Shown here piece after piece: positions 6,770 through 32,054 of a stretch of 64,000 nt of DNA (the first letter of the stretch is position 1; every line of letters begins with the position of its first letter). Both the position numbers and the translations under genes were made by a program. The DNA comes from Candidatus Omnitrophota bacterium (GTDB taxonomy: Bacteria > Omnitrophota > Gorgyraeia > Gygaellales > JAQTUX01). The notes below the pieces were generated by a model. That model worked only from the letters and a program-made list of their open reading frames with translations, searched no databases and was not told the origin of the DNA. The stretch is from assembly GCA_028707125.1 (NCBI GenBank), contig JAQTUX010000001.1, positions 269,639 through 333,638 of the forward strand, written 5' to 3'.

Positions 6770-6846
6770 AGTTAACCCTGATAACCTTTACTTATCCGTA
6801 ACCATAACCGATAAACGTAACCCAATACCCGTTCCCTCCCTAGATT

Positions 6847-6874: not shown

Positions 6875-6932
6875 ATAAAATCAGTTATACACCGAGTCCC
6901 GAGCCCTCCCAGCAGGAGACAATTAATACAAG

Positions 6933-7709: not shown

Positions 7710-10421
7710 ATGATAACGCTGGAAGACGTTTGGCTGAAATACAGGATAGCGTTCAAGGAAGGCGCGAGGGCCGTTTGCGAGGATTTCTGGGCGCTTAAGG
7801 GCATAGACCTGAATGTCGGCAAGGGAGAGTGTTTCGCGGTCATCGGAGAGAACGGCTCAGGCAAGACCACGCTCCTGAGGGTGATCAGCGGCATGCTAAT
7901 GCCTGACAAGGGCAGGGTGCGCCTGGGAGGAAGGGTCGCCGGGCTTATGGAGATACAGGCCGGTTTCCATCCTGAACTGACCGGCAGGGAGAATATCTAC
8001 AATATCTCGGCGCTTTCAGGCCTGAGCGCCGATGAGACAGGCGCCTGTTACGCGGACATGGTTGAGTTTGCCGCCATCGGCAGGTTCATCAACGCCCCGG
8101 TAAAGACATACTCCCAGGGCATGCTTGTGCGCCTTGCCTTTGCCATAGCCATACACGCGCGCACCGACATATTGCTGGTTGACGACATATTCGCGGTAGG
8201 CGATATTTATGCCCGGCGCAAGTGCATTAATAAGATGTTTGAGCTGAAGGATAAGGGCCTGACCATTATTTTTGTTTCTCATGACCTGGATATTGCCAGG
8301 CGGCTGTGTAAAAGAGGCGTGCTGCTCAGGGAAGGCAGGGTTATCAGGGCCGGTTCAATAGACGGACTCGTCAGTTATTATCTTGAGACGGTAGGCAATA
8401 AGGAAGGTATAGCCCTGCTGCAAAAAGGGCGGCTGGCAATTATTTTTAATAACGGCAAGCTGATCATCAGGTGGAACGACTCCGCTCTTACCAAGGGCGC
8501 GGCCGGGCATACGGTGATGAGCTCTTCGGGCAGGACATATCAGTCAGATACCGCCTCCTGGATTATCCGGCAGCCGGCGGCAGCCGATGAGATCGTTGCC
8601 GTAGGCAGGTGGCCGGATATGCCGGCTGAGCTTATCTGGAAGATACGCTGCCGCGGCGAAAAGGAATTCAGCTGGGATGTAACTCTGCAGGCGCGCGCAC
8701 AGGCCCGGATAGAGGATTACACGGCCAGATTGATCCTGACCGACGAATACGAGGGCTGGTTTACATCGCAGGAGGAATACGTTTTTCCGGAGGCGTTCCT
8801 GCATGAGAACGAATGGCAGAGCCGCCGGATAGACGATCATCTTAACTGGCTGATAGGGTTAAAGACGGGAGCCGATAGCGGCGAAGGCCTGCCAACGCTT
8901 GTTTTAGACAGCTCAGGCGCGGATAAACAGGGCGCCTGCCAGATCGGCAATACCGGCATTGAGGCCTCTGCCAGAGGTATTCAGTTCAATTACGTTAATC
9001 CGGAACCAGAGCATGCCGCGGGCAGCTATAAGTTTTTTTCAACCGGCGTGAAGTTATTTGAGGAGCGGGACAGGCAGGATTTTGAATGTTATATGGCGCG
9101 GGCAAGGCAGGCCGGCAGGCGCAGGATCATCAGCCGCGGCCCGCTCGCCCTGTGTTGCGGGCAGCGCAAAATAGAGATTTTCCTGCGGGATGCGCTTTTA
9201 AGCAGCGGCGCGGGGCTGGATACGAAATTCATCTGGCAGGGCCGTACCTACAGCGCCGCCGGAGGTAACTGGTCCGTAGAAAAAGAAGGAGATAATTATC
9301 TTGTAGTTAATATCTTTTGGGGGCCCGAAGCGCCTTTTTTCCAGGTATGGAGAATGGAACTGCGGGATGAGTCCGCCATTTTCTGGCAGGCGGATATGGA
9401 AATAAGAGATGGGCTGGAGATCAGGAACAGGCAGGTTGAGCTTTTTCTCAGCGGCCGATATGACAGGTGGTTTACGCCTTCGGAAAACGGCGACTTTGGG
9501 GCAGTGGAAAAAAAAGGCAACACAGTCATACTAAGTAAATACATAAACGATTTTTCCGGCGTAGAACAGTCCTGCCTTATGCCGGCGGTTACCTTCGCCA
9601 ATCAAGACGGCCGCGCCAGAGTGTCGTATATTTCCCGGGGCCAGGACAAGGAATTAAATACGAAGCTGCATTATCTGGAGATAGATCCCGCCGCTGACGC
9701 GGCGCTTGAAGCAGGCAGGCACGCCTTTTTTAAGGGGGCCATAAGGATAGCGCCCAGGCAGGGACAAAAAGGCGTTGACGCGGTTGTCAATAATAACGGC
9801 GCGGCCGCGGCGATAAATTTTAACGGCGTTTCTCTGGATTTCAGGCACGGCAGGATGCGTCTTTTCTATGAAGGCGTTGAATTGACAAAAGGGCTGGGCC
9901 TTTACTCTGCGGTTTTGCATGAAGGCAACTGGCATGATTCTTCGCAGGGACTATGGAAGGTCGAGGCCTCGGACAGGGAAAGGTTCGTCGCCGTGGGCCG
10001 CTGGCCGTGGCTGCCTGTCAGGCAGGAATGGGAAGTAACGCTATTGGATGGCCGCGATATCATCTGGCGCATAACCAGGGATACCCGGGACGGCTTTGAT
10101 CCCGACAAGGAGCAGGTTAACCTGATGCTGTCGGATAATTACCGGGAGTGGTTTGTCCGGGAAAGGGCGCGGGGAAGGTTTCCCGAAGAGTTTGCCGAGC
10201 ATACCCGCGGCGGGTTCTGGGAGCGGTTATGGTCGGCGGCAGCGCAGTCGCCGGTCGGCGCCAAAGGGCCTGGGCTGCCGTCTGTCCTCCTGGACTGTTC
10301 AGAGAGCCCGGTTCCCGGCCGCCTGTGCATTGAGAACACGGACGCGTTATTCAAGGCCAGGGTCCTGCAGTGCGAATCGGCGCAGCAAAAACATTTTAGC
10401 GGAAAGATAAAGATATGCTGA
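7710..10421 (+). CDS. wzt: ABC exporter ATP-binding protein (Wzt/TagH-like) with a ~670-aa C-terminal extension made of three copies of an unassigned module
   Basis: Walker A GENGSGKTT, signature-like YSQGMLVRLAFA, Walker B ILLVDDIFAVGD, H-loop VSHD within aa 1-230. The ATG abuts the stop of the permease gene. The extension (nt ~8400-10418) has three ~200-aa repeats at ~8415-9075, ~9125-9760 and ~9805-10418. Confidence 0.9.
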   Translation: MITLEDVWLKYRIAFKEGARAVCEDFWALKGIDLNVGKGECFAVIGENGSGKTTLLRVISGMLMPDKGRVRLGGRVAGLMEIQAGFHPELTGRENIYNISALSGLSADETGACYADMVEFAAIGRFINAPVKTYSQGMLVRLAFAIAIHARTDILLVDDIFAVGDIYARRKCINKMFELKDKGLTIIFVSHDLDIARRLCKRGVLLREGRVIRAGSIDGLVSYYLETVGNKEGIALLQKGRLAIIFNNGKLIIRWNDSALTKGAAGHTVMSSSGRTYQSDTASWIIRQPAAADEIVAVGRWPDMPAELIWKIRCRGEKEFSWDVTLQARAQARIEDYTARLILTDEYEGWFTSQEEYVFPEAFLHENEWQSRRIDDHLNWLIGLKTGADSGEGLPTLVLDSSGADKQGACQIGNTGIEASARGIQFNYVNPEPEHAAGSYKFFSTGVKLFEERDRQDFECYMARARQAGRRRIISRGPLALCCGQRKIEIFLRDALLSSGAGLDTKFIWQGRTYSAAGGNWSVEKEGDNYLVVNIFWGPEAPFFQVWRMELRDESAIFWQADMEIRDGLEIRNRQVELFLSGRYDRWFTPSENGDFGAVEKKGNTVILSKYINDFSGVEQSCLMPAVTFANQDGRARVSYISRGQDKELNTKLHYLEIDPAADAALEAGRHAFFKGAIRIAPRQGQKGVDAVVNNNGAAAAINFNGVSLDFRHGRMRLFYEGVELTKGLGLYSAVLHEGNWHDSSQGLWKVEASDRERFVAVGRWPWLPVRQEWEVTLLDGRDIIWRITRDTRDGFDPDKEQVNLMLSDNYREWFVRERARGRFPEEFAEHTRGGFWERLWSAAAQSPVGAKGPGLPSVLLDCSESPVPGRLCIENTDALFKARVLQCESAQQKHFSGKIKIC

Positions 10422-13400
10422 AGGGCCTTTTATTTAATAACAGGAACAGGCGCGCGATAGAACGCGCCGGCATAAAAATAGATATTGATGAAGAGCGCCG
10501 CTTCAGGATCTACCATAACGGCAGCGAGCTCAGCAAGCTGCAGGGCATGCGCGTCTGTTTGTTTTCAGAGGGCAGATGGCACTATTTTCCCGCCAAAGAC
10601 AGTATCTTGAAGATAAGCAGGCCCGATGAAACCAGTTTTAGTTTGCGGCTTTACAATAGAACGCTGCCTGTTGTCCTGCATTGGGGAATGGAGCTGGGTG
10701 AGGGCAGCCGGTTGAAATGGAGCGTGGAATTAGAGCTAAAGGGGCCCATACGGCTGGATGCCGTGAAGGCCGTAGTGCTCCTCAGCCGTTCCTATAAAAG
10801 CTGGTTCTCTTATTCCGGCGCTAAAGAGGGCCTGTTCGCTGATAGCGCCGGAGAATTCCGGCAGGAGATCGGTATTGCCGATTCTGATTTTTTAAGCATT
10901 GGCGCGGACAGGCCGGAAATTGCCACGCTGCTGTTAAGGGCGGTTGATTCGCCTTTAAATGTTTCTTTGTGTAACACGGATGATCTGTCTTCCTCGCGTG
11001 AAGTTGATCTCTGCTGCAACGGGCAGAAGGAATTTTATGCCCCCGGCAGGCACTCTTGTTTTCAGGCGGTTATTGAACTCTGCGGGGATAAGTCCGCAGT
11101 AGAAAATATCATTCAGGATGTAAAAGGCAGAAAGAGGCGCGAAGAAGAAGAGGCGCTGCGTAAAAAGGAAGAGGAGCGCCTGGCGGAAGAAGAACAGCGC
11201 CGGCTAGAGGAAGAACGCCTGCGCCAGGAGGAACAAAGGCGCCTGGAAGAAGAGCGCCGAAAACAGGAAGAGCTCAAGCGCCTGGAAGAAGAGCGCCTGA
11301 GAATTGAGCGCGCGCGGGACCGGCAGCGGCGCACGCTTGAGGCGGGTGATTTCAGGATTTATTTTGACTACAATAACCGTTTCCATTTCTACCACAGGAA
11401 TGAGGAGTTTACCAAGGCGCATGGCCTGCATACGGGTATATTTTCAGAGGGCCGCTGGTATGGTTCGGCGGATTCAGAGGCCGCTATAGAGAATAGTGAG
11501 CCGGGTAGATTAAGGATCAATTTCAGGCACAGACATCTGCCCGTTATTCAATCCTGGGACCTGCGGTTAGATTCCGCGGGAGTAATCAGGTGGAGCGTTG
11601 ATATGCGGCTTGAGCAGCCGTTAAGGATAGAGCGCAGGAACGCCTGCCTGTTTTTGTCCCGCGCCTATGACAGGTGGCTTGCGCCTCCGGACGCGGGGGC
11701 GTTCCCCGCGGCATTCGGCCTGCAATGGCAGATGGCCAGCCCTTCGGAGAGCAGGCCGGGCTTTATAGGGCTGACGTCCGGGATGAAGCAGCTGCCGGGC
11801 ATAACATTAAAGGGCTCCGAAGACGGCGGCCGCCTGGCTGTTCATAACGCGGATATGGATGTCTCATCCCGCGTCCTTGAGGAGCGTTTTGAAGAGCGCG
11901 TAGAGTTTTACAAGGCAGGCGATTACTCTTTCTCGCGGGCGGTCATCCGGCTTTATAATGATAACGCGGCCATCGAGGGCGCGTTCAAAGAGGCGGAAGA
12001 AAAAGAGAACGCGCTCAGAGAGTTGCGCAAAGAGCGGCTGAGGCGCGCCGCCGGGCTAAGGCAGGGGAGAAAAGAATTTGAGGGGCTGCGCCTGCGCCCC
12101 GCGGCCTCGCGCGTCGTTATTTACGGCGATTCCCAGGGCCTGCACGATAAGATCAGCGGCGAGGCAGGCGGTTTTAACAGGGCCGTAGCGTGCATTAAGG
12201 CAGAAAGCGGCACAGCCGCGGTAGGTATCTCACGGTTTAATTTCTTCAAGATCCATGAGGTCGTCCAGTTCATCTCTACTTTGAGGAACGCGCGGATCGA
12301 TACGCGCCCTGTCTGCCTGCCGCTGTTTCCGGCAAGCGGTATTTACTCCAGTTTTCTTAATTACATAAAGGAGATCAAATCTCTCGTCGCAGGAAAGGGC
12401 ATCGAACTTTTCTTAAAAGACGTTGATCTGCTCAAACTCCTGCAGGCTGTGTCTTCGCAGTCCAATAGAGATAACGAGAGGGACCTGCTGCGGCTTCTGG
12501 GGCTGATAGCCGAGCATCCCTTTATCGGGCCGCAGACGCTGGTCCTCGACACAACGCATAAATGCAATACAAACTGCGCCCATTGCTGGATACACAACCC
12601 CCGCAGCAAGACGCCCCCCGCCGTGCTCGAATCAAAGATGGACGACCGCCTGTACAGGAAGATCATTGACGACGCGGCAGCCATTTTGAGCGACGAGGTC
12701 ATAATACAGGGCGACGGAGAGCCGCTTCTGGACGACCGCTTTATCGAGATGGCGCGTTACGCCAGGGACAAGGGGTTAAAGGTCCTGTTCTTTACCAACG
12801 GCATACTCCTGGATGAGGCGACGGCTAAATGCCTGATAGACCTGGAGGTCAATGAGATATTCTGCAGCCTGCCCGCCGGGACCGACCTGACCTACAGCTG
12901 GATAAATTCGCGGCAGTCAAAAGACACCTTCCACAGGATCGTCGGCAATCTGAAAAACCTGATCTCCCTGAGGAACGGCTCGGGCAGGCCCCTGCCGCTT
13001 TTGCAGATGACCCACGTGATACACAATATGAATTGCCATGAGATCGAGCAGATGTCCGCTGTTGACGCGGACATAGGCGCGGACAGGGCACGCTTCTACC
13101 TGGCCCGCCTTGACGAGAACATCGCGCATTTAAAGATACTATCTTCACAGGTAGAGGCGCTAAAGGCATCCCTGCGGAAGGCCGCCGCGTTGCTTAAAGA
13201 AAGCAAAATAGACCTGCAGGACAATATTTTTTTCCAGCTGGACAATTATCAGCCGGAGACCGGTTACTGGTCGCAGGGCCGTTTTCTTGAAACGGGCTGC
13301 CCGGTGGGGTGGTTTTTCGCGCTGATATTGGCTGGAGGAGAATTGAGCATGTGCTGCCATATGCGGGTGGTCGGGCGCCTGGGGGAAAGATCGCTGAGGG

Positions 13401-13588
13401 AGGCGTGGAATTCCCGGGAATACAACGATTACAGGGTCAAGGCCAAACATATGCGGGACAATATGGACGCGCGTTTCTCAAACGGCGTCAAGCTTTACGA
13501 TGATTTCTGCAATCATTGCGATACGCATCAGGTGATCTTAAGGATAAACGGCCTGCTGGAGCGATACGGGCTGAAGAAATTCTTATAA
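10415..13588 (+). CDS. Multidomain radical-SAM protein: two copies of the Wzt-extension module, an E/R coiled coil, a linker domain and a C-terminal rSAM/SPASM-like catalytic domain
   Basis: CX3CX2C at 12563-12586 (HKCNTNCAHCW), GDGEPLL, and C-terminal Cys motifs GELSMCC...CNHCDTH. The modules lie at ~10472-11085 and ~11336-11965. The gene overlaps the wzt stop by 7 nt. Confidence 0.8.
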   Translation: MLKGLLFNNRNRRAIERAGIKIDIDEERRFRIYHNGSELSKLQGMRVCLFSEGRWHYFPAKDSILKISRPDETSFSLRLYNRTLPVVLHWGMELGEGSRLKWSVELELKGPIRLDAVKAVVLLSRSYKSWFSYSGAKEGLFADSAGEFRQEIGIADSDFLSIGADRPEIATLLLRAVDSPLNVSLCNTDDLSSSREVDLCCNGQKEFYAPGRHSCFQAVIELCGDKSAVENIIQDVKGRKRREEEEALRKKEEERLAEEEQRRLEEERLRQEEQRRLEEERRKQEELKRLEEERLRIERARDRQRRTLEAGDFRIYFDYNNRFHFYHRNEEFTKAHGLHTGIFSEGRWYGSADSEAAIENSEPGRLRINFRHRHLPVIQSWDLRLDSAGVIRWSVDMRLEQPLRIERRNACLFLSRAYDRWLAPPDAGAFPAAFGLQWQMASPSESRPGFIGLTSGMKQLPGITLKGSEDGGRLAVHNADMDVSSRVLEERFEERVEFYKAGDYSFSRAVIRLYNDNAAIEGAFKEAEEKENALRELRKERLRRAAGLRQGRKEFEGLRLRPAASRVVIYGDSQGLHDKISGEAGGFNRAVACIKAESGTAAVGISRFNFFKIHEVVQFISTLRNARIDTRPVCLPLFPASGIYSSFLNYIKEIKSLVAGKGIELFLKDVDLLKLLQAVSSQSNRDNERDLLRLLGLIAEHPFIGPQTLVLDTTHKCNTNCAHCWIHNPRSKTPPAVLESKMDDRLYRKIIDDAAAILSDEVIIQGDGEPLLDDRFIEMARYARDKGLKVLFFTNGILLDEATAKCLIDLEVNEIFCSLPAGTDLTYSWINSRQSKDTFHRIVGNLKNLISLRNGSGRPLPLLQMTHVIHNMNCHEIEQMSAVDADIGADRARFYLARLDENIAHLKILSSQVEALKASLRKAAALLKESKIDLQDNIFFQLDNYQPETGYWSQGRFLETGCPVGWFFALILAGGELSMCCHMRVVGRLGERSLREAWNSREYNDYRVKAKHMRDNMDARFSNGVKLYDDFCNHCDTHQVILRINGLLERYGLKKFL
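11125..11335 (+). other. Highly charged E/R/K/L heptad-like coiled-coil segment (~70 aa)
   Basis: RKRREEEEALRKKEEERLAEEEQRRLEEERLRQEEQRRLEEERRKQEELKRLEEERLRIERARDRQRR, with internal repeats of (E)EQRRLEEER(L/R)R. Confidence 0.8.
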
Positions 13589-13593
13589 AAGAT

Positions 13594-15798
13594 ATGAAGA
13601 TATCATTGGTAAATCTGCCCTGGAGGAGTTTTGGCAGGGAGGGGGTGAGGGCTGGTTCCCGCTGGCCGCATTTGAAGGCCCGCTCGGAGAAAGAATATCT
13701 GCCTTTCCCCTTTTTTCTCGCCTACGCGGCGGCGCTGCTTAAAAAGAACGGATTTAACGCGCGGCTCATTGACGCCATCGCCAGCGGCCTGTCTTACAGG
13801 CGGTTTTCGCGCCGGATGCGCTCCAGCCGCCCCGACATCCTGGTCTGCGAGACGTCCACGGTGACCCTCAAGCATGACTTGCGGGTCCTGAAGGGCCTGG
13901 GGAGCAAGGCGGAGATCATCCTTTGCGGCCCGGATGTCAATATCCGCCGGCCGGATTTTCTCAGGGAGAACGGATTTATAAAATATGTGCTGTCCGGAGA
14001 ATATGAATTTACGCTCCTTGAACTGCTGCAGCATCTTGATGAGGGCCGCGGCCTTGATGAGGTAAAGGGGATCATATACCGCTCTAACGGCGGCGTGAAG
14101 ATCAATCCCGCGCGGCCCCTGGTTGACCTGGACCGCCTGCCCTGGCCTCTGCGCGAAGGCCTGCCGATGTCGCGTTACAACGATGCCCCGGGAGACATAC
14201 CCATACCGTCGGTGCAGATGATGGCCTCACGCGGCTGCCCGTTTCGCTGCAAGTTCTGCCTCTGGCCGCAGGTGATGTATCAGGGCAGCCATTACAGGGC
14301 CAGGAGCGTCGTGGACGTCGTTGATGAAATGGAATACCTGGTCAGGAATTCGGGATACAGGTCGGTCTATTTTGACGACGATACCTTTAACTGCGGCAAA
14401 GAAAGGATGCTCGGCCTCTGCGCTGAGATCAAGAAGAGGGGCCTGAATATCTTCTGGGCGATAATGGCAAGGGCCGACCTGATGGATGAGGAGATCCTGG
14501 TGAATATGAAAGAGGCGGGGTTGTTTGCCGTCAAATACGGCGTGGAATCCGCCGATAACTCCCTGTTGGACAATATCAATAAGGGTATGTCGCTTGAAAA
14601 AACAGAGGCCGTCATCAAGATGACCAGGGCGCTGGGCATCAAGACCCACCTGACCTTTACCCTGGGCCTTCCGGGAGAGACCAGGCAGACCATAAAAAAG
14701 ACGGTTGATTTCGCCTTAAAGGCCGATCCGGAATCGCTTCAGTTTTCCCTGGCTACGCCGTTTCCGGGAACGGAGTTCTACAGGGAGATGAAGGAGAACG
14801 GCCGGATAATCTCCGCTGATTGGGCAAGATACGATGGAAGCCGCAGCAGCGCGCTCGCCTATGACGATCTCTCCGCGGGCGAGCTTGAGCGCGCCATGAG
14901 GTCGGCTTACAGGCGGTGGGCAATGCACCGTTTGAAAAGGGCCCGTTTTGACCGATTGGGGCTAAAGGCGTATTGCCGCTATTCCCTTGTCAATTCAATA
15001 AATAGCAACGGAATTGTCATGACCGCTTATAAGGTTTCGCGGTTTGCTTTCAGGTACGCGCTTATGCACGTGAGGGAGGCGTTGGTGTCCTCGCCCCGTA
15101 AGATTGAAAACATCGCGCGGGAAAAGGGGTTGAAACTGGGAAGGATGTCCCTGGTCCCGGACGGCCGCGGCCTGAGTTTGTTCTGGGGCGGCCTCAAGTT
15201 GACCCGCGGACGCGGATTTTACAGCTTTCTAAATTTTGAAGGCGCGGATAACGGCAGCGACGGCGCGCTTAAATGGGACACGCAGAGGCCGGACGCGGGC
15301 AGCATTATATTGAGGCGCCTGTATGACGGCGCCGGCATTGAGGAGATATGGAAGATAACCGCGCTGGATGAAAAGCAGATCGGCTGGGACGTGGATATTG
15401 AAATAAAAAAAGAGACGGGTGTGCGGCAGGAAGATATCGGCCTGGCGCTTACGCGCAAATACCGCAAGTGGATAGAAGAATGGGGCGAGGGCAGGTTTCC
15501 CCCTTTGAACGATTACCGCGAAGTTGAGCTCAGGAACGCGCGCAGCGCCGTTGTCGGCGTAAGGGGCAGGAGGGCATTGAGGAATACTCTGCCCACGGTC
15601 CTGCTTGACCTGTCCGCCGGCAATAACGGTTTTCTCCCGTCGGTAGGGAACTCGGCAGAAGGGCATCACGGCCGCCTGCTCGGGGTCAGGCTCGCGCGAG
15701 GGGCCCGCGTCCGCAGATACGCCGCCGGAAGGCACAGGTTGTTGTCGGCCAGGATAAAGATAGTGGAAGAGGATTTCGCGAAGGGCGGGCGAAGATGA
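13594..15798 (+). CDS. B12-binding-domain (class B-like) radical-SAM protein with one C-terminal copy of the Wzt-extension module
   Basis: The ATG at 13594 (MKISLVNLPW) is preferred to the track start at 13516, which overlaps the upstream gene. Rossmann-like N-terminal domain (DILVCETST...IILCGPD...VLSGEYE), ASRGCPFRCKFCLWP, and a module at ~15150-15790 (LSLFWGGLKLTRGRGFY...LPTVLLDLS). Confidence 0.85.
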   Translation: MKISLVNLPWRSFGREGVRAGSRWPHLKARSEKEYLPFPFFLAYAAALLKKNGFNARLIDAIASGLSYRRFSRRMRSSRPDILVCETSTVTLKHDLRVLKGLGSKAEIILCGPDVNIRRPDFLRENGFIKYVLSGEYEFTLLELLQHLDEGRGLDEVKGIIYRSNGGVKINPARPLVDLDRLPWPLREGLPMSRYNDAPGDIPIPSVQMMASRGCPFRCKFCLWPQVMYQGSHYRARSVVDVVDEMEYLVRNSGYRSVYFDDDTFNCGKERMLGLCAEIKKRGLNIFWAIMARADLMDEEILVNMKEAGLFAVKYGVESADNSLLDNINKGMSLEKTEAVIKMTRALGIKTHLTFTLGLPGETRQTIKKTVDFALKADPESLQFSLATPFPGTEFYREMKENGRIISADWARYDGSRSSALAYDDLSAGELERAMRSAYRRWAMHRLKRARFDRLGLKAYCRYSLVNSINSNGIVMTAYKVSRFAFRYALMHVREALVSSPRKIENIAREKGLKLGRMSLVPDGRGLSLFWGGLKLTRGRGFYSFLNFEGADNGSDGALKWDTQRPDAGSIILRRLYDGAGIEEIWKITALDEKQIGWDVDIEIKKETGVRQEDIGLALTRKYRKWIEEWGEGRFPPLNDYREVELRNARSAVVGVRGRRALRNTLPTVLLDLSAGNNGFLPSVGNSAEGHHGRLLGVRLARGARVRRYAAGRHRLLSARIKIVEEDFAKGGRR

Positions 15799-17114
15799 AG
15801 AGCGGCTCACGCTGGGTGAAGTTCAGGGATAGGCTGAAAAACAGCGGCCTGAAGGATACGCTGAGGACGGCTATGCTGGAATTGAGGCCCGGGCGTTTTT
15901 TCGGGGATTATCTTGATGTGCTGGGGGTGCTGGACGGGCTGCACGCTTATAAAGGCCCGGAGTTCGCCCAGATAGACCTTACCAACGACTGTAATAATAA
16001 TTGTATCGGCTGCTGGTGCAATTCGCCGCTTCTCGGAGACAAAAGGATAAGGTCCGGTGATAAAAGGCGGACACTGTCCCTTAAAAGCGTGCTGAAACTT
16101 CTTGATGAGTTGTCCGCCATGGCCACGCGCCATATTTATTATGCCGGCGGCGGCGAACCGTTCATGCACCCCGATATTATGGAGATACTCAGATACACAA
16201 AGCGGAAAGGGTTTGTCTGTTACGTAAATACCAATTTTACCCTGCTTGACGAAGAGAAGATAAGGAAGATCGTAGATTTGAAGGTTGATCATCTGACCGT
16301 GAGTGTCTGGGCGGCAACGCCTGAGGCCTACTGCTTCACGCACCCCAACAAGGAGGGGGCGGATTTTCTGAGGATAAAGGAGATGCTTTCGCTGCTTAAC
16401 CGGATCAAGCGCGGATACCCGGTAGTCAAACTATACAATGTGATCTTCAATATGAATTACCATGAGCTTTCCGCCATGGTGGATCTTGCCGCGGACACGA
16501 ATTCAGAGGCGGTTGAATTCACGGTCATCGATACCATCCCCGGCAGGACGGATAAGTTGTTGTTGAACCCCCAAGAGCGCAGCGCGTTGTTGGAGGAATG
16601 CAGGAAGATTGAACAGCGCAGCGCGAACGCGCATCTTCGGCCGCGGCCGCAGATAATGAATTTGCGGCAGTTCGCGCGCCGGATCGAAAACGCGGCCTCC
16701 TCAAGCGCCGAATATGATTCAGATGTGATCGGCAGCATGCCTTGCTACGCCGGATGGGCGTTCACGAGGATACTGGCCGACGGCAGCGTGAATTCCTGCC
16801 TGAAATCCCACCGTTTCCCCGTGGGCAATATCCGCCAGGAGAGCTTCAAGAAGATATGGAACGACAGGCGCCAGAGGTATTTCAGAAGGAAGGCCTACCA
16901 TCTGGATAGATCGGACCCCTTTTTCAAGATCATAGGCAACGACCCTGATTCGGCAATGGGCTGCTATAAAAGCTGCGATAATCTCGGACATAACATGGAG
17001 ATGCACGGCAAGATGTCCGCTTTGAGCGCCCGCCAAAGAAGATGGCTTGAACGCGCGGCAGGGATCATGAAGTCAGGGCGCAGATATTACTACGGAATGG
17101 CCGGAGGTAAATAA
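15795..17114 (+). CDS. Radical-SAM/SPASM-like protein, 'CxxxCxxCW' subfamily
   Basis: DLTNDCNNNCIGCWC, GGGEPFMH, C-terminal CYAGW...DGSVNSC...PVGNIR...CYKSCDN. Homologous to the catalytic halves of 10415..13588 and 39966..41636. ATGA start/stop overlap. Confidence 0.85.
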   Translation: MKSGSRWVKFRDRLKNSGLKDTLRTAMLELRPGRFFGDYLDVLGVLDGLHAYKGPEFAQIDLTNDCNNNCIGCWCNSPLLGDKRIRSGDKRRTLSLKSVLKLLDELSAMATRHIYYAGGGEPFMHPDIMEILRYTKRKGFVCYVNTNFTLLDEEKIRKIVDLKVDHLTVSVWAATPEAYCFTHPNKEGADFLRIKEMLSLLNRIKRGYPVVKLYNVIFNMNYHELSAMVDLAADTNSEAVEFTVIDTIPGRTDKLLLNPQERSALLEECRKIEQRSANAHLRPRPQIMNLRQFARRIENAASSSAEYDSDVIGSMPCYAGWAFTRILADGSVNSCLKSHRFPVGNIRQESFKKIWNDRRQRYFRRKAYHLDRSDPFFKIIGNDPDSAMGCYKSCDNLGHNMEMHGKMSALSARQRRWLERAAGIMKSGRRYYYGMAGGK

Positions 17115-18169: not shown

Positions 18170-19176
18170 TCGTGAAGCCGAAATTCTGCTGCGTGGCGGC
18201 TACGGATTACTGTATGCTGCGCTGTAAAATGTGCAATAAATGGCAGGAGAGGTCCCCCCGGCCCGACGAGGTCCCTTCCCTGGATGAGTGGAAGAACTTT
18301 ATCGCCGCTTTCAGGGAGCTGGTGGACGAGGGTTTTGAGATGGATTTCGGCGGCGGCGAGGCGTTGTCGCTGCCGGGCATCCTGGAACTTGTAAAATTCG
18401 CCAAGGGCAGGGGCTTCCGTACCACCCTTGCCTCCAATGGCTATCTTATAGATAAAGAGATGTCCAGAAGGATAGCCGACTCCGGCCTTGATGCGGTCAG
18501 CCTGTCTCTGGACAGCCCTTATCCTGAAGTCCACGATAAGATGCGCGGCGTAGAAGGTGTTTATCAGCGCGTAATGGCCGCGCTGGATAATCTCTCTTTA
18601 TATTCCCCTTCAACCAGAAAGGGCCTTTGCTGCATAATTATGAATGAAAATATGGACAGTTTGATACGGCTGGCTGATATGGCTGATAAAGACCCCCGCG
18701 TTGACTGGCTTTATTTTATGTCGGTGGTCCAGCCCAATTACAGCGGCCCGCTGGACAGCGCCTGGCGCGATGAATACAGCTATCTTTGGCCGCGGGATAC
18801 CAGGCGGCTGCAAGACATAATAGATGAGTTGATACGCAGGAAGGCTGACGGCTCAAAGGTGAGCAACCGGCCCGAGCACCTGCGCGCCTACAAGGCCTAT
18901 TTCGCCGACCCAAAGACGTTTGTGAACAAGGCGAAGTGTATCGTGGGCGGGGCGGCGATAAGTGTGAATACCTACGGCTTCATTCAGCTTTGTTTTTTCA
19001 TGGATTTTATCGGCAACATCAGGAAGGATGATATCCGCAAACTCTGGTATTCTCAGGGCGCGGAGTCGGTAAGAGGCAAGGTAGGCGCCTGCAAGGCCAA
19101 TTGCCATCTGCTTCTTAATTGCTGTTATATAGAAGACGATCCCGAGTTATATTCCGTAAATAATGAAAGCCGTTAG
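18166..19176 (+). CDS. SPASM/twitch-type radical-SAM paralog P2 (closest to P1)
   Basis: FCCVAATDYCMLRCKMCNKW, GGGEAL, SNGYLIDKEMSRRIADSGL, KCIVGGAAISVNTYGFIQLC, IGNIR, CKANCHLLLNCCYIEDD. Shares a ~35-nt near-identical stretch with P1 (agggagctggtggacgaggg.tttgagat.gat). Confidence 0.85.
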   Translation: MIVKPKFCCVAATDYCMLRCKMCNKWQERSPRPDEVPSLDEWKNFIAAFRELVDEGFEMDFGGGEALSLPGILELVKFAKGRGFRTTLASNGYLIDKEMSRRIADSGLDAVSLSLDSPYPEVHDKMRGVEGVYQRVMAALDNLSLYSPSTRKGLCCIIMNENMDSLIRLADMADKDPRVDWLYFMSVVQPNYSGPLDSAWRDEYSYLWPRDTRRLQDIIDELIRRKADGSKVSNRPEHLRAYKAYFADPKTFVNKAKCIVGGAAISVNTYGFIQLCFFMDFIGNIRKDDIRKLWYSQGAESVRGKVGACKANCHLLLNCCYIEDDPELYSVNNESR

Positions 19177-20449
19177 ATTCTGGCTTGTGTCGCTATTTGC
19201 CGCCGCCGTATTGCTGGAGGCGGTATTAAGGGTTTCCGGGTCCGCGTATGCCGGGGCTCATTGGTTGAGGCAGGGCCTGTCAAGAGGCAGCCAGGGCAGG
19301 CCTTTTACCGTACTTTGCCTTGGTGATTCTTTTACCTTCGGCGTAGGCGCCGCCGCCAAAGACAGCTATCCGGCGCAATTGCAGCGGATGCTGCAGGGCA
19401 ACGGAGAGAAAGGATTCCTGATAATTAACGGCGGACGGCTGGCGAATACTTCTTCTCTGCTCCTGGAAAATCTGCGCTCCGACCTGGATACTTACAGGCC
19501 GGACTTGCTGGTGATCATGGTCGGCTGTAATAATTATTGGAATCTCCGCGGCAGCAGCTATTTCCATCTCAAGGGCGAAGGCGCGGGATTCCGGCAGAAA
19601 CTGGACAGCGTAATGAGCAACCTGCGTTTCTACCAGGCATGTAAGATAGGTTATTTGAATCTGAAGTCAAGATTGAATAACCGGCGCAGGCAGCCGGATA
19701 TTGCCGGCGTCCCCGATATGAAGGCGCGGCGGATAGACCCTGACGCTGACCGGCTGGTGGTGGAAGCGCAGAAGCTATACGAAACAGGCGAGTACGCGCT
19801 TTCAAGAGAAAAGTTGGACGAGGCGCTGGCGAGGGACGAATTCAGCCACCGCGCCCATTTCTTGTCGGCCATGCTGCTGAATATAGAAGGCAATGATACG
19901 GCGGCAAGGGATGAGCTCTGGCGGTCTCTTCAGGCGGCCAGGGAAACCGGCGAATGGGACGGCGGTTTCTTTTGCAATATTATTAATATTTGTTTACGGA
20001 TTGAGAAAGACATCCCCGCGCAGCGAAGGCAGTTGTCAAAGATGAGGGAGTTCGCGGCGCTGCACGCGCCGCCCGATAAGAAACAGGATATCCTTTCGCT
20101 CTTGGACGCGAAGGCAGGGCTGTTGGATGATAATAGCGATATGTATGAGGTCGCGAGGTTTGATATCGGACGGGTCGCCGGCCTGGCAAGGCAGCGTGGC
20201 TGCGCGGTCATACTCCAGACATACCCGGCAAAAAGCGATCTGAATTCAATGTTAAGACGGGTGAGCAAAGAATACGGCCTTGTTCTGGCAGATAATGAAT
20301 TATTCTTTGAAGAGAGAGGCAGAGAAGGCCCGTTAGGGGATCTTTTCGTGGCTGACGGCCACTGTTCAGCTGCCGGGTATAATTTGATCGCCGCAAACGT
20401 CTACGCGGCATTAGCCGATAATGGCTATATCAAAAATGCGAAAAGATAA
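19163..20449 (+). CDS. Membrane-anchored SGNH/GDSL-like hydrolase or acyl-esterase with an inserted TPR-like helical region (SGNH-TPR 1)
   Basis: N-terminal anchor MKAVRFWLVSLFAAAVLL. Block I VLCLGDSFTFGVG, block II INGGRLANTS, block III LLVIMVGCNNYWN, block V FVADGHCSAAGYNLIA. A ~200-aa helical insert sits between blocks III and V. Confidence 0.7.
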   Translation: MKAVRFWLVSLFAAAVLLEAVLRVSGSAYAGAHWLRQGLSRGSQGRPFTVLCLGDSFTFGVGAAAKDSYPAQLQRMLQGNGEKGFLIINGGRLANTSSLLLENLRSDLDTYRPDLLVIMVGCNNYWNLRGSSYFHLKGEGAGFRQKLDSVMSNLRFYQACKIGYLNLKSRLNNRRRQPDIAGVPDMKARRIDPDADRLVVEAQKLYETGEYALSREKLDEALARDEFSHRAHFLSAMLLNIEGNDTAARDELWRSLQAARETGEWDGGFFCNIINICLRIEKDIPAQRRQLSKMREFAALHAPPDKKQDILSLLDAKAGLLDDNSDMYEVARFDIGRVAGLARQRGCAVILQTYPAKSDLNSMLRRVSKEYGLVLADNELFFEERGREGPLGDLFVADGHCSAAGYNLIAANVYAALADNGYIKNAKR

Positions 20450-28494: not shown

Positions 28495-30640
28495 TACCGA
28501 CGAATTCCAGCTGCACAAATTGATCCAGGCCCATCTTCAGGCCGGGGAATACGGCCCGGCCAGGGAGGCCTGCCGCCGGCTCTTGAAGATCAGGCCCTCA
28601 AGCATAGCCGCGCACCAGGAACTGGGCAACATACATCTTGAGGAAGGCGATCCTGCCGGGTCAATAAAATATTTCCGGAAGTCCCTGCGGCTGTGCGCGC
28701 GGCAGGGCGGCGGGGACGGGCCGTTAAATGTTTATATAAGGGAATCATATATCAATATGGGCCGGGCATATCTATCGATGAAAAAGTACGGCCGGGCGGT
28801 CAAGATGTTGAAGAAGGCGCTTGAATTAGCGCCGCGGGAGGAGAGGATATACAGATTCCTCGCCTCGGCATACCTTGAGGCGAAAGATTATGATGCGGCG
28901 GTAGATACCGCAGCCGGCCGTTTCAAATCCGCGGGAAAGATCAAGGCCTGCCAGGCGCAGGCCCGGATAAAGATGCTGCGCATCCCCAATTTTTACGGGC
29001 CCGATATCTTTTCCACGGAGATGAATTCCATTATGCTGCCGCCTCTGGCGCTGGGGAATATTGTCTCTTATGTCAGATCACGGGGGATCCCTATGGACCA
29101 GGACGATCTGCATATAAAAATACATCACGATAATTATTTCGGCGGCGGAGAGGAAAAGATAGACGAAGAGGTCTTCTTTGACGCCTCCAGGGTGGCCGGA
29201 TACGCCGGGGGAAACAGCGATCCGCTGATAGAAGGGATCATGGAAAGGGTATGCCGCAAAACCGGCATTGAAGGATACAGGATAATCCTTTTTTCTTTAG
29301 ACAGCTGTTCCATGAACGACAGCCATGCCTTGTTCGCCGTCTGCCTGGCAAGGTATCTAAAGAAGGTCTATGGCCCGATAATAATTTTAGGCGGGCTGAA
29401 TTATTTCCTGGACTTAACGCGCAAGATCGGCTGCCCGCGTTCGGACATAGATCATATAATAGGCAATGAAGGGGAGGAGGTTGTGGCAGAGTTGCTGGCT
29501 TCCTTATTGGATAACAAGGCATATTCAGGCACGGGCAGACAGGAGGGCGAGGGGGCCATTTATTCCCTGAAGGTCCCCGCTCCGGTAATGCCGGATTTTG
29601 AGGGGCTGCCCATTGACAAGTACCGCTATCGCGGCCTAAGGAGCGATTATTGCCCGGACGATGCGTTGAGCCGGGAAATAAAAGAATTCAACGATTCCCG
29701 GACATTGCTTCTGCCTTTCAGGTTCATAAAGGGCTGCACCAATAAATGTATATTTTGCGCCAGCTCCGCCGGCGGGCTGATCCATGTGGCGCCGCCCGCG
29801 GTCGCGGCCGAATGGCTCAAGCAGCTTCAGGAAAGATACGACCCGACAGGGTACCTTTTTCTTAACGATACTTTAAATATCTCCAAGAAATACGTTGACC
29901 GGTTTTGCGAAGAGGTGATAAAAAGAAAGATCGGGGCCCGCTGGTCTGATTGCGCGCGGGTGGACCGGCTGGATAAAGAATCCATATACAAAATGGCTGA
30001 AGCAGGATGCGTGCGGCTGGTATTCGGGATGGAGACCGCCAGCAGGCGGCTGCTGAAATATATCAATAAAGAAATAGACCTGGCCCAGCTGGAAAAGGCG
30101 CTTTACTGGGCTGACAAGGCCGGCATCTGGACAGGGGTGGAGATAATCAGCGGCCTGCCTTATGAGAAGGAAAGAGATGTCGAAGAGACGATCTCTTTCC
30201 TAAAACGCAACAGAGAGCATATTGACGCCTTTTACTATAACGCCTTTAATATAAAGGACACCTCCGCCATACGAGCGCACCCTGAAAAATACGGCATAAC
30301 CAATATATTTGAGCTATCCAGTTACGAAGAAGGGTTTTCCACATTTGTCAAATACGGCTTTGATGAAACGGGCGGACTGAAGTGGCCGGAGAAGAGGAGG
30401 CAGGTGGTCTCCAGTTTTAATAAGGTCATAGATGCCTTGGGGAGGCCTCCTTTTCCGGAACACGAATATGAAAGTTTTCTATTTTTCCTCTATTCCAAGT
30501 ACGCCGACAAGAGGGCCATAAGGGACATCTTTTATTCTGTAGGCAGGCACAAGAACGCATGCCTTGAGCTTTTCAGGAAGGCGAAGAGGAACGATCGGCA
30601 GCCCGGGCAAGCAGCCGAGAGGACACTGGTTTATGGTTGA
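28478..30640 (+). CDS. TPR + B12-binding-like domain + radical-SAM protein (class B-like, subfamily member 1 of 3)
   Basis: N-terminal TPR-like helices (aa ~10-150), then LPPLALGNIVSYVRSRGIPMDQDDL, IIILGG...IIGNEGEEVVAELL, FIKGCTNKCIFCASS, VFGMETAS. Paralogous to 34348..36402 and 36383..37993. Confidence 0.8.
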   Translation: MTMKDNTDEFQLHKLIQAHLQAGEYGPAREACRRLLKIRPSSIAAHQELGNIHLEEGDPAGSIKYFRKSLRLCARQGGGDGPLNVYIRESYINMGRAYLSMKKYGRAVKMLKKALELAPREERIYRFLASAYLEAKDYDAAVDTAAGRFKSAGKIKACQAQARIKMLRIPNFYGPDIFSTEMNSIMLPPLALGNIVSYVRSRGIPMDQDDLHIKIHHDNYFGGGEEKIDEEVFFDASRVAGYAGGNSDPLIEGIMERVCRKTGIEGYRIILFSLDSCSMNDSHALFAVCLARYLKKVYGPIIILGGLNYFLDLTRKIGCPRSDIDHIIGNEGEEVVAELLASLLDNKAYSGTGRQEGEGAIYSLKVPAPVMPDFEGLPIDKYRYRGLRSDYCPDDALSREIKEFNDSRTLLLPFRFIKGCTNKCIFCASSAGGLIHVAPPAVAAEWLKQLQERYDPTGYLFLNDTLNISKKYVDRFCEEVIKRKIGARWSDCARVDRLDKESIYKMAEAGCVRLVFGMETASRRLLKYINKEIDLAQLEKALYWADKAGIWTGVEIISGLPYEKERDVEETISFLKRNREHIDAFYYNAFNIKDTSAIRAHPEKYGITNIFELSSYEEGFSTFVKYGFDETGGLKWPEKRRQVVSSFNKVIDALGRPPFPEHEYESFLFFLYSKYADKRAIRDIFYSVGRHKNACLELFRKAKRNDRQPGQAAERTLVYG

Positions 30641-32054
30641 CGGCAATAACGAGACAGGGATCCTTCTGGTGCAGTCCCCGCCCTGGGGCGTTTATGCCCC
30701 GCCGCTGGGGATCGCCTACCTTTCCGCTTTTCTTAGGTCCGGCAGGCCGGGCGCGATGATATACGACTTGAATATGGAGATATTCCGCGGCTGTCCCGAA
30801 CGGATCAGGGCAAAATGGGATACGGGAGATTTTGAGTTCTGGGCATCCGGAAAGGCGGCGCAGGAGTTACGGGGGTCATTGGACGGGCTGGCGGAGGGGA
30901 TAATTTCTTACGGCGCCTCCGTGATCGGGTTTTCCGCAACTTTTGCCTCCGCGCCGTTTCTGAACGCGTTTATCCCCATGCTCAGGAAAAAGTCGGACAG
31001 GAAGTTGACGATCATAGTCGGCGGCGGCGGCGCCAGCTATGCCCAGACACGGTCGTTATTTACCGACGGCACGATCGATTATTTTGTGATCGGAGAAGGA
31101 GAGCGCGTTTTATCCGATTTGTTGGCTGAGATACGCGGGGGCGGCTTTAACAGCGCTCCGGCGGGTTGCATAAGCTGGAAGGATGTATCCGGCAGCCACG
31201 CCGTCTGTATAGCGGCGGACAAAAACAATACCGATATCAACACAATACCGTTTCCTACCTTTGAGGAATTTGACTTGAGTTATTACACTCAGGACGACCT
31301 TATCCCGCTCATAACCAGCCGCGGCTGCATACGTAATTGTATCTTCTGCTGCGATTCACCGCTGAAGAGGCCTTATCGCTGCCGCCGGCCGCGGGCGGTA
31401 GCGGATGAGATGGCTTATCATGTGAAGCGATACAAAAGAAAAAGATTTGAATTCAGCGACCTGTTGATAAACGGAGACCTGGGCTTCCTGGATGAGCTCT
31501 GCGACTGCCTGATCGCCATGGATATGGGAGTCGCCTGGGGCGGCCAGGCGACCATCAGAAGAGATATGGGCCGCGGCTTGTTGGGTAAAATGAAGGCAGC
31601 CGGCTGCGGAGGGTTGACATTCGGTGTTGAAAGTTGCTCCGACAGGGTGCTGGAGCTGATAGGCAAGGGCGTCAGCGCCGCGGACATCCGCAGGGGCCTG
31701 GCGCGGGCAAAGGATTCCGGCATGCAGGTAGAGATAAACCTTATCGTCGGCTTTCCCGGGGAGGCAGAGGAAGATATTGATGAGACGATAGATTTCATAA
31801 GGAAGAACGCGCCGTCCATTGATAAGATAAACAGCCTGAATATCTGCACCATAGGCCCCGGCACGCATATTTATGAGCATCTTCAGGACTATAATATAGA
31901 TAAGGATATGATAACGGACTGGTATGCCTGGTTCACCAGGGATATGTCCAATACGCTTGAGGTGAGGATGGCAAGGCACCGCCGGATATTATCGCTTTGT
32001 TCGGAATTGAACCTCGCGCCCGCCTGGCAGAATGTGAAAAAGAGCGATGTTTAA
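30633..32054 (+). CDS. B12-binding-domain radical-SAM protein
   Basis: The ATG at 30633 (MVDGNNETGILLVQSPPWGVYAPPLGIAYL) overlaps the upstream stop by 8 nt and is preferred to the track start at 30564. VIGFSATF...IIVGGGGASY...FVIGEGERVLSDLL, TSRGCIRNCIFCCDS, TFGVESCS. Confidence 0.85.
   Translation: MVDGNNETGILLVQSPPWGVYAPPLGIAYLSAFLRSGRPGAMIYDLNMEIFRGCPERIRAKWDTGDFEFWASGKAAQELRGSLDGLAEGIISYGASVIGFSATFASAPFLNAFIPMLRKKSDRKLTIIVGGGGASYAQTRSLFTDGTIDYFVIGEGERVLSDLLAEIRGGGFNSAPAGCISWKDVSGSHAVCIAADKNNTDINTIPFPTFEEFDLSYYTQDDLIPLITSRGCIRNCIFCCDSPLKRPYRCRRPRAVADEMAYHVKRYKRKRFEFSDLLINGDLGFLDELCDCLIAMDMGVAWGGQATIRRDMGRGLLGKMKAAGCGGLTFGVESCSDRVLELIGKGVSAADIRRGLARAKDSGMQVEINLIVGFPGEAEEDIDETIDFIRKNAPSIDKINSLNICTIGPGTHIYEHLQDYNIDKDMITDWYAWFTRDMSNTLEVRMARHRRILSLCSELNLAPAWQNVKKSDV

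Follow-up and report, generated by a model that had tools for sequence, protein, structure and literature searches.

The window, the whole 64,000-nucleotide stretch of DNA analyzed here, lies on a 1.26-Mb contig of "Ca. Omnitrophota" and contains four open reading frames (ORFs) on the forward (+) strand that encode proteins combining an SGNH domain with tetratricopeptide repeats (TPRs). Each is also an NCBI gene model: copy 1 (positions 19163 to 20449; 428 aa; MDD4909325.1), copy 2 (32047 to 33357; 436 aa; MDD4909336.1), copy 3 (41614 to 42825; 403 aa as an ORF; MDD4909343.1), and copy 4 (59398 to 60798; 466 aa with a GTG start; MDD4909358.1). The NCBI start of copy 3 is 41641, giving 394 aa instead of 403. 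Copies 1 and 2 are named "GDSL-type esterase/lipase family protein" by NCBI, and copies 3 and 4 are named "tetratricopeptide repeat protein." The locus also encodes an initiating sugar-phosphate transferase, GT2, GT4, Wzy_C-TPR, and GT-C enzymes, an ABC-2 exporter, and ∼26 radical SAM tailoring enzymes.

The architecture is most fully described for copy 1 (ORF, PF13472 match, NCBI model, and AF2 model). An N-terminal hydrophobic helix with a conserved LLE..LR motif (aa 2 to 36; 19166 to 19270), recognized by hydropathy, the AF2 helix, and conservation in the family, precedes the N-terminal SGNH half (aa 48 to 132; 19304 to 19558), in which Pfam, AF2, and motifs place strands β1 to β3 and blocks I to III. 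A helical, TPR-like insert follows (aa 133 to 337; 19559 to 20173), and the C-terminal SGNH half (aa 338 to 428; 20174 to 20446) contributes strands β4 and β5 and block V (D398-G-H400-C), as indicated by AF2, motifs, structure comparison, and the Pfam alignment obtained with the insert excised. Candidate catalytic residues are S56, G91, N123, D398, and H400. The same elements occur in the same order in copy 2 (helix, aa 5 to 23, 32059 to 32115; N-half, 32185 to 32445; insert, aa 134 to 340, 32446 to 33066; C-half, 33067 to 33354; key residues S56 and H403), copy 3 (helix, 41662 to 41718; N-half, 41788 to 42036; insert, aa 142 to 302, 42037 to 42519; C-half, 42520 to 42822; S68 and H369), and copy 4 (helix, 59425 to 59481; N-half, 59551 to 59802; insert, aa 136 to 371, 59803 to 60510; C-half, 60511 to 60795; S61 and H438).

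All four proteins exceed the gathering score of Lipase_GDSL_2 (PF13472; 32.9 bits), with 56.8, 75.8, 38.5, and 33.5 bits for copies 1 to 4, respectively, the margin for copy 4 being narrow; no NCBIfam model came near its cutoff for any of them. The SGNH block motifs listed in the initial annotation were all recovered. Block I reads CLGDS in copies 1 and 2 (the GDS clade) and CLGES in copies 3 and 4 (the GES clade), all four copies have the block II Gly and the G.N of block III, and block V reads DGHCSAAGY, DDHCNAEGY, DFGHCTAEGN, and DFGHCTRKGN in copies 1 to 4. The block V Asp forms the canonical DxxH (D-F-G-H) in copies 3 and 4 but lies at His-2 rather than the canonical His-3 in copies 1 (D-G-H) and 2 (D-D-H), and this acid position is N or E in some relatives.

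Several lines of evidence indicate that the two halves belong together. First, the AF2 model of copy 1 (pLDDT, 84.5; pTM, 0.72) has strands at residues 48 to 54, 85 to 89, and 115 to 119, helices at 133 to 344, and further strands at 348 to 352 and 374 to 376, i.e., a five-stranded α/β/α SGNH fold with all blocks. Second, once the insert was excised, PF13472 aligned in a single stretch over profile positions 1 to 177 (copy 1) or 1 to 178 (copy 2) of 178. Third, structure comparison returned carbohydrate esterases as neighbors, with 1YZF a top template, and low-rmsd superposition on real SGNH enzymes suggests that the catalytic Ser and His would be close in space. The spliced single sequence, compared with PDB sequences, aligned with known SGNH esterases over their N-half only (best E value, 1e−5). 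The possibility that the pieces fail to assemble into an SGNH fold thus found no support in the AF2 model, the excised-insert alignment, or the structure comparison. As modeled, the N- and C-terminal halves are shown to combine into a single, complete SGNH domain, in which the TPR array breaks into the fold immediately behind block III; strands 4 and 5 and the block V His follow the array.

The inserts measure 205, 207, 161, and 236 aa in copies 1 to 4, within the ∼150 to 250 aa proposed at the outset, and have Pfam TPR matches above threshold or a TPR-like fold. Pfam TPR_2, TPR_1, and TPR_8 exceed their cutoffs in copy 2, and copy 4 has several canonical TPRs (TPR_1, 76.5 bits, in three stretches). 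In copy 1, residues ∼125 to 185 form a low-confidence linker and helical hairpins occupy residues 193 to 344. A family profile searched against PDB sequences was swamped by TPR proteins. The insert is shown to be TPR.

The number of TPRs varies freely among relatives, unlike the catalytic residues. In 38 sequences, C52, G54, S56, T58, G91, G121, and H400 (copy 1 numbering) are invariant, and N123 and C401 are conserved in ≥90%. Block I and block V motifs are both retained in 233 of 256 unique relatives, in which the median Ser-to-His spacing is 420 aa; GES (199 sequences) outnumbers GDS (28) in block I, and DFGHC (181) is the commonest block V. The pair C52/C401 was considered as a clue to a disulfide and rejected: these are probably ordinary core residues, as C401 occupies the usual Pro/Leu site of H-P-[NST]-x-x-G-[YH] and C52 lies within strand 1. 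Because homologues show little or no variation at Ser, Gly, Asn, and His, the four proteins are probably enzymes rather than scaffolds, and they are predicted to be catalytically intact members of the Lipase_GDSL_2 type. The initial annotation had raised the use of SGNH domains as polymer-binding scaffolds, and the TPR region of TviD, discussed below, does have a scaffolding role. Nevertheless, conservation of the four catalytic residues over ∼250 relatives argues against such use, and it is highly improbable that these are dead proteins holding an assembly line together by their TPRs alone.

Homology among the copies is evident from BLASTP (147 bits between copies 1 and 2, 207 bits between copies 3 and 4, and 58 to 97 bits for cross-pairs, all well above chance) despite identities of only 22 to 35%. 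Together with the PF13472 matches, this bears out the earlier claim of one architecture common to all four. Segmental duplication of "radical SAM plus SGNH" units within the window was rejected as their origin, because the paralogues are old at this level of identity and the adjoining radical SAM genes form no corresponding pairs.

The four genes are not a one-off but belong to a large, uncharacterized family centered on Omnitrophota. The family comprises at least 1,564 clusters at 50% identity, and mapping of its distribution, which the initial annotation had proposed, gave 495 matches in GTDB species genomes, mostly Omnitrophota, in a scan that used a GES-clade alignment and is therefore biased toward that clade. 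It is often multicopy, with up to eight genes in tandem. The architecture was not found described in a literature search on Omnitrophota, SGNH, GDSL, TPR, and radical SAM themes that covered sources outside subscription journals, and a 2022 review of SGNH enzymes nowhere mentions TPR. The split SGNH-TPR design is real and appears to be undescribed; the description of it as unusual holds for the literature but not for the databases.

Which known SGNH systems do these proteins resemble? AlgX/AlgJ, PatA/PatB, and OafA/OatA are likewise SGNH-type enzymes, and theirs modify exported polysaccharides; all depend on a relay of the MBOAT or AT3 type, and AlgJ is anchored via an N-terminal helix. The kinship with these systems suggested by the initial annotation was not upheld. 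AlgX and AlgJ are circularly permuted, with the order H-S-G-N (PMC9487903), whereas all four copies have the order S-G-N-H. In alginate biosynthesis, AlgX forms a complex with AlgK, a TPR protein (PMC9734138). Membership of PatB/DUF459 was rejected on PF04311 scores of 14.5 to 20.2 bits against a gathering score of 27.2, and membership of OafA/OatA (SGNH_AT3), whose SGNH domains are fused to AT3, was rejected because there is no AT3 domain: each of the four proteins has one hydrophobic segment, and none of the 44 ORFs in the window has an AT3 or MBOAT Pfam match. Neisseria Ape1, a periplasmic peptidoglycan O-acetylesterase that is not known to carry the conserved N-terminal helix, also has an interrupted SGNH domain, presumably at a different point of the fold. 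Its insert is a carbohydrate-binding module, a β-sandwich rather than TPRs, within a GDSL-2 enzyme (PMC9487903). Other GDSL-2/CE3 carbohydrate acetylesterases (2VPT CtCes3-1, 1YZF, and 7DDY) are soluble, single-domain proteins of ∼200 aa with neither a TPR insert nor a membrane helix; most characterized members of GDSL-2 are acetylesterases acting on carbohydrates (PMC9487903).

The closest functional analogue is instead TviD, the Vi-antigen O-acetyltransferase of Salmonella Typhi, which by its description also combines an SGNH domain and TPRs in one polypeptide, is membrane associated, and works in capsule synthesis alongside an ABC-2-type exporter (PMC8760489). 1YZF is a top structural template for TviD and for the SGNH-TPR proteins alike, and the TPR of TviD recruits a GT4 glycosyltransferase, TviE, encoded next door (PMC8760489). 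The two nevertheless differ. The TPR is C terminal in TviD but separates block III from strand 4 here; the nucleophile is Cys (G-S-C) in TviD but Ser (G-D/E-S) here; and TviD associates with the membrane via C-terminal amphipathic helices, the SGNH-TPR proteins via the N-terminal helix.

Hydropathy finds exactly one hydrophobic segment in each of the four copies, at the N terminus, in agreement with the single transmembrane helix initially annotated. Its sequence is itself highly conserved across the family, with an E-x-G-L-R-x-G-G break inside a hydrophobic stretch of ∼30 aa, and no lipobox or additional transmembrane segment was found among 235 relatives. The initial annotation deduced from the positive-inside rule that the domain is outside the cytoplasm, but this was not established: the helix is positively charged on both sides (over 138 family members, K+R averages 2.34 before the helix and 2.75 after it), and the charge rule does not clearly settle its orientation, net charge favoring N-in in 61 sequences, being equal in 31, and reversed in 46. 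We roughly estimate that the periplasmic face, reached by a classical N-in signal anchor, is somewhat the more probable location and that the cytoplasmic face retains a substantial share.

The SGNH-TPR proteins could be TviD-like O-acyltransferases on the cytoplasmic face, held by a monotopic or reentrant anchor and using an acyl-CoA or acyl-ACP donor, that O-acylate an undecaprenyl-linked polymer before ABC-2 export while their TPRs recruit soluble radical SAM enzymes and glycosyltransferases. We consider this a real but lesser possibility. TviD acts before export by an ABC transporter (PMC8760489), and in the locus itself, ABC-2 and ABC ATPase genes come first, a GT4 gene follows copy 3, and the window has no MBOAT/AT3 relay. 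SGNH-TPR start and stop codons overlap with those of cytoplasmic radical SAM genes, some radical SAM enzymes of the locus also carry TPRs, and the slight excess of K+R on the C-terminal side, the break in the hydrophobic stretch, and three conserved cysteines in the GES clade all fit a cytoplasmic domain. Conversely, an N-terminal tail with two to four K/R residues and a first run of 20 hydrophobic residues ending in Arg would lead standard predictors to call a signal anchor with its N terminus inside and the domain outside, and AF2 gives a single continuous helix with no hairpin. The TPR position and nucleophile of TviD also count against the analogy, as does its lack of reported relatives beyond Vi systems, and the frequent neighbors PMT_2 and YfhO work on the outer face.

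Gene neighborhoods support a role in glycan tailoring. A conserved module around copy 2 (30564 to 37993, + strand) comprises genes for a B12-radical SAM enzyme, the SGNH-TPR protein, a radical SAM/SPASM enzyme, a TPR-radical SAM enzyme, and a radical SAM enzyme of ∼535 aa, and this gene order is repeated around a homologue (P0008) in another Omnitrophota genome (GCA_042572045.1). Neighbors of homologues include PMT_2, YfhO, DegT, sugar epimerase, GT2, sulfotransferases, carbamoyltransferase, and B12-radical SAM enzymes. The earlier observation that SGNH-TPR genes punctuate a radical SAM array describes the window well but is not a trait of the family, as radical SAM genes lie within 10 kb in 30 of 78 related loci (38%) and are recurrent rather than obligatory.

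Peptide-modifying systems, too, typically contain TPRs and radical SAM enzymes of the SPASM type, and the substrate therefore need not be a glycan. The radical SAM/SPASM array might modify a polypeptide, e.g., the 2,016-aa fiber protein whose giant gene heads the locus or an unrecognized precursor, with the TPR binding the polypeptide and the SGNH domain serving as an esterase, acyltransferase, or protease. In accordance with this, 14 small radical SAM/SPASM paralogues resemble NCBIfam peptide maturases, although with scores far below the curated cutoffs. We regard a peptide or protein substrate as unlikely: homologues elsewhere adjoin sugar-nucleotide and glycan-tailoring genes, often with no radical SAM gene nearby, the structural neighbors are carbohydrate esterases, and no precursor-peptide gene was noticed. 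Similarly improbable are enzymes directed at lipids, i.e., membrane-surface lipases, lysophospholipases, or GCAT-type phospholipid-dependent acyltransferases that remodel envelope lipids or draw on phospholipid as the donor for a periplasmic acceptor. Some sources label the family "lysophospholipase L1-like esterase," but these names are generic homology labels, and the weak NCBIfam TesA match reaches 25.8 bits against a cutoff of 270. The hydrophobic stretch beyond the conserved Arg could lie along the membrane surface with the active site nearby, and a phospholipid donor would solve the problem of the missing acyl relay; the neighborhoods, however, are glycan related and not lipid related.

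We tentatively favor, at somewhat short of even confidence, membrane-tethered SGNH enzymes that act on the surface glycan of the locus and use the TPR insert as a docking platform or clamp. Each enzyme would form an acyl-Ser intermediate and, on the sugar polymer or glycoconjugate made by the locus, would remove or transfer an O-linked acyl group, of which acetyl is the simplest candidate. The TPR array would sit beside the active site as a platform or clamp for partner enzymes or the polymer, the most likely role given that it exits the fold at the canonical site of the SGNH substrate specificity loop. The conserved Gly-rich helix would tether the enzyme to the membrane and might also hold it against a polytopic partner, and the four diverged copies would differ in partner or position specificity. 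The proposal in the initial annotation that the copies carry out several different acylation or deacylation steps is plausible. No other acyltransferase was recognizable within the window, and without an acyl relay there, a periplasmic transferase would have no donor and an esterase would have no in-locus source of esters.

A more speculative and rather doubtful extension is that the split SGNH-TPR protein is the acyl transfer arm of an undescribed, Omnitrophota-specific, radical-SAM-rich system for tailoring surface glycans or glycoproteins. The TPR clamp would feed the polymer or a partner, e.g., the recurrent B12-radical SAM neighbor, past the active site, the Gly-rich helix would dock on a polytopic partner, and lineage-specific expansion, to as many as eight tandem copies, would generate diversity of surface chemistry. 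Membrane phospholipid might be the acyl donor, making an MBOAT/AT3 relay dispensable.

SGNH enzymes determine how bacterial surface polymers are O-acylated and thereby govern resistance to lysozyme, phage, and immunity. To our knowledge, accessory domains within SGNH folds have otherwise been carbohydrate-binding modules; a TPR array placed beside the active site would couple catalysis to recognition of a partner or polymer differently, and this design has been kept across >1,500 sequence clusters of one phylum. Omnitrophota are ultrasmall and possibly host dependent, and we know of no cultured member. The label "tetratricopeptide repeat protein" on half of the four enzymes hides a large enzyme family, and this family is also a marker of glycan-tailoring islands in Omnitrophota genomes, the locus with ∼26 radical SAM genes analyzed here among them.

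The window is a single long gene array on the forward strand, and four of its ORFs, all on the + strand, encode proteins of a common layout, designated here SGNH-TPR copies 1 (19163-20449, 428 amino acids [aa]), 2 (32047-33357, 436 aa), 3 (41614-42825, 403 aa; the NCBI start lies nine codons later, at 41641), and 4 (59398-60798, 466 aa). NCBI annotates all four as genes on a 1.26-Mb “Candidatus Omnitrophota” MAG contig, naming two of them “GDSL-type esterase/lipase family protein” and the other two simply “tetratricopeptide repeat protein.” Each exceeds the gathering threshold of PF13472 (Lipase_GDSL_2), and the middle of each is matched by Pfam TPR families. The PF13472 match in copies 1, 2, and 4 is to the first half of the profile only (positions 1 to ∼88-99 of 178). 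SGNH block I reads CLGDS in copies 1 and 2 and CLGES in copies 3 and 4, the block II Gly and block III G.N are found in all, and block V lies at the far C terminus (DGHCSAAGY, DDHCNAEGY, DFGHCTAEGN, and DFGHCTRKGN in copies 1 to 4, respectively); the inserts between comprise 205, 207, 161, and 236 aa. The sole hydrophobic segment of each protein is at its N terminus. BLASTP scores are 147 bits for copies 1 and 2, 207 bits for copies 3 and 4, and 58 to 97 bits for cross-pairs. The shared architecture and motifs described in the initial annotation are thus borne out.

Score, motif order, and predicted fold place all four proteins in the SGNH superfamily (PF13472). An AlphaFold2 model of copy 1, built on a 38-sequence alignment (pLDDT, 84.5; pTM, 0.72), predicts a long N-terminal helix (residues 2 to 36), strands bearing blocks I to III (48-54, 85-89, and 115-119), a helical region (133-344), and two further strands (348-352 and 374-376), all before His400. 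Independently of the model, deletion of the insert in silico allows PF13472 to align in one stretch, covering positions 1-177 of 178 in copy 1 (E = 2e-15) and 1-178 in copy 2 (E = 7e-20). The C-terminal halves of copies 3 and 4 are too diverged for a Pfam match and are homologous to those of copies 1 and 2 via the family alignment. The proposal that the N- and C-terminal pieces assemble as one SGNH domain withstood both analyses, and the modeled fold would bring Ser and His into proximity. Because the two pieces together comprise only ∼175 residues, superposition on real SGNH enzymes must include both.

The residues C52, G54, S56, T58, G91, G121, and H400 (copy 1 numbering) are invariant in the 38-sequence alignment, which spans both clades of the family, and N123 and C401 are conserved in at least 90% of it. 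Recognizable block I and block V motifs occur in 233 of 256 nonidentical relatives; 199 have GES and 28 have GDS at block I, and the commonest block V is DFGHC (181 relatives). The acid residue is less certain: copies 3 and 4 have the canonical DxxH, and copies 1 and 2 have Asp at His-2. The spacing from Ser to His ranges from 211 to 783 aa (median, 420). This pattern of fixed catalytic residues and a freely varying number of TPRs is that of an active enzyme whose accessory module varies. The proteins appear to be such enzymes, and it is very improbable that they are dead scaffolds, the alternative initially offered.

The family comprises two clades. The GDS clade (copies 1 and 2) is small, with ∼20 full-length relatives, and the GES clade (copies 3 and 4) is large, with at least 799 matches at E < 1e-5, the top 120 all at E < 1e-97; named matches to the latter are almost all [quoted passage not shown] An exhaustive phmmer search, using only the 96-aa C-terminal half of copy 3 as the query, yielded 2,233 clusters (50% identity) with E ≤ 1e-3, 1,564 of them with E ≤ 1e-10; among the matches listed, fragments excepted, the match lies at the very C terminus of proteins of 390 to 870 aa. 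When GTDB species, each represented by one genome, were scanned for the family motif, 495 matches were confirmed. Omnitrophota is the label on ∼48 of the best 78 loci, the others including uncultured Planctomycetia (14), Elusimicrobia (8), and one “Patescibacteria group” MAG (3), MAG labels being coarse. Two or more copies are present in 25 of these 78 loci. An extreme lineage-specific expansion occurs in an Omnitrophota locus (L002; GCA_028711865.1, contig JAQTRK010000010.1, locus coordinates 1-16000), where eight tandem paralogues of 549 to 680 aa occupy ∼16 kb and are followed by a sulfatase-fold gene, PMT_2, B12-radical SAM, DegT, and one more SGNH-TPR gene. The suggestion that the design is unusual does not survive 1,564 clusters (E ≤ 1e-10) and 495 genome-scan matches; only its description is missing. 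NCBIfam has no model for the design, full-text literature searches found no description of a TPR-interrupted SGNH protein, and a 2022 review of SGNH carbohydrate enzymes reports insertions of CBMs only (e.g., Ape1) and never mentions TPR. The split design is common in its lineage, and SGNH-TPR is a large unnamed family of TPR-interrupted SGNH enzymes centered on Omnitrophota.

Membership in the PatB, OafA, and AlgJ/X families, which the initial annotation named, was rejected: PatB/DUF459 scores are subthreshold, AlgX/AlgJ are circularly permuted, and the AT3 domain of OafA/OatA is absent. Membership in the TviD family is also ruled out, as the nucleophile here is Ser and the TPR region is inserted. 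The nearest functional analogues are TviD and AlgX-AlgK, in which SGNH and TPR occur in cis and in trans, respectively, and Ape1, which has a domain inserted in the GDSL-2 fold. TviD, the O-acetyltransferase that combines SGNH and TPR regions, acts in the ABC-transporter-dependent Vi-antigen pathway of Salmonella Typhi, and its TPR region brings the neighboring GT4 polymerase to the membrane (PMC8760489).

The N-terminal element spans ∼30 hydrophobic aa (window positions 19166-19270 in copy 1) and is present in all four copies and ∼130 relatives, with conserved K-16, G-9, L-1, invariant E0, G+2, L+3, R+4 (96%), G+6, G+7, and F+8. Judged by sequence, it is far more conserved than expected of a passive anchor or signal peptide, which suggests that it has a specific partner within the membrane or is re-entrant. 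No lipobox or extra-TM variant occurs in the family relatives examined. The outside location initially assigned is supported by the basic N-tail and a hydrophobic run of 20 residues that terminates in Arg, normally an N-in signal anchor of periplasmic proteins, but the C flank is also basic (mean K+R of 2.75, versus 2.34 on the N side, in 138 sequences) and the charge bias is split, net charge favoring N-in in 61 of the 138, being equal in 31 and reversed in 46. A cytoplasmic enzyme with a monotopic anchor would accommodate the basic C flank and the conserved Gly-rich break in the element, the lack of an MBOAT/AT3 relay in the window, and the ABC-exporter context, and it has an experimentally characterized precedent in TviD (PMC8760489). 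Set against the signal-anchor features, this is a minority reading, and a periplasmic location is slightly favored over a cytoplasmic one.

The locus begins with a 2016-aa fiber protein (129-6179) with Gly/Thr/Ser-rich repeats (e.g., ELNFVDGVTSAIQTQL and GNVGIGT) and, like a phage tail fiber, a C-terminal Peptidase_S74 (endosialidase-type intramolecular chaperone) domain. A 132-aa ORF (6257-6655) matching Pfam 23S_rRNA_IVP, a four-helix-bundle protein (E = 1.5e-11), separates it from the ABC-2 permease gene. The window also encodes an ABC ATPase, GT4 and GT2 enzymes, an initiating Bac_transf sugar-phosphate transferase, a Wzy_C-TPR protein, a PMT_2 (GT-C) enzyme, a methyltransferase, and a U32-family protein. 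The Peptidase_U32-family gene and a following 288-aa Cys-rich ORF (CPTVGCERKKKPFLRVRPCVKEC), which has no Pfam match, lie directly upstream of copy 4 (57457-59382) and could be a candidate UbiU/UbiV-like oxygen-independent hydroxylase pair. A 325-aa ORF with a signal peptide-like N terminus and no Pfam family (51234-52211) lies between a DUF362 gene and a radical SAM gene.

The surrounding radical SAM array is a more striking feature of the window than the SGNH-TPR genes: ∼26 genes in 64 kb (10415-41636, 52144-55731, and 60711-64000), including 14 small paralogues (∼330 to 390 aa, 36 to 45% identity), most with a SPASM domain. Three large paralogues (28478, 34348, and 36383) are mutually related, the first two with N-terminal TPRs; those at 10415 and 39966 are a pair (43% identity), those at 30564 and in a cut-off ORF from 62887 are B12-binding types, and the array runs on past the window end. 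The 903-aa ABC ATPase (7710-10421), whose C-terminal 673 aa have no Pfam match, has a stretch of ∼200 to 230 aa in common with the radical SAM proteins at 10415-13588 and 13516-15798 (24 to 27% identity).

The order B12-radical SAM, SGNH-TPR (copy 2), radical SAM/SPASM, TPR-radical SAM, radical SAM is the same in another Omnitrophota genome. Other homologues adjoin PMT_2, YfhO, DegT, sugar epimerase, GT2, and carbamoyltransferase genes, sulfotransferases with APS kinase, sulfatase-fold proteins, and, repeatedly, a B12-radical SAM gene. Among the 78 loci, a radical SAM gene lies within 10 kb in 30 (B12 type in 20), at least three are present in 12, and 15 of 121 SGNH-TPR ORFs directly adjoin one. 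Judged by its neighborhoods, the family is a component of glycan-tailoring islands; the interleaving with radical SAM genes emphasized initially is recurrent but does not define the family.

In SGNH-TPR proteins, the SGNH catalytic apparatus is complete and is accompanied by a TPR array and a membrane element that is also conserved. The function first proposed is reasonable but overspecific as to location and family. SGNH enzymes form an acyl-Ser intermediate, which water resolves in an esterase and a sugar hydroxyl in a transferase (PMC9487903). The two outcomes are indistinguishable from sequence. The substrate would be an O-acyl, probably acetyl, substituent on the glycoconjugate made by the locus; activity directed at peptides is improbable, and activity directed at lipids equally so. 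In TesA and other SGNH enzymes, a substrate-gating loop lies right after block III. The TPR region exits the fold directly at this point and hence would sit beside the active-site cleft, where it may dock partners or polymer. The four old paralogues (22 to 35% identity) may differ in partner or position specificity.
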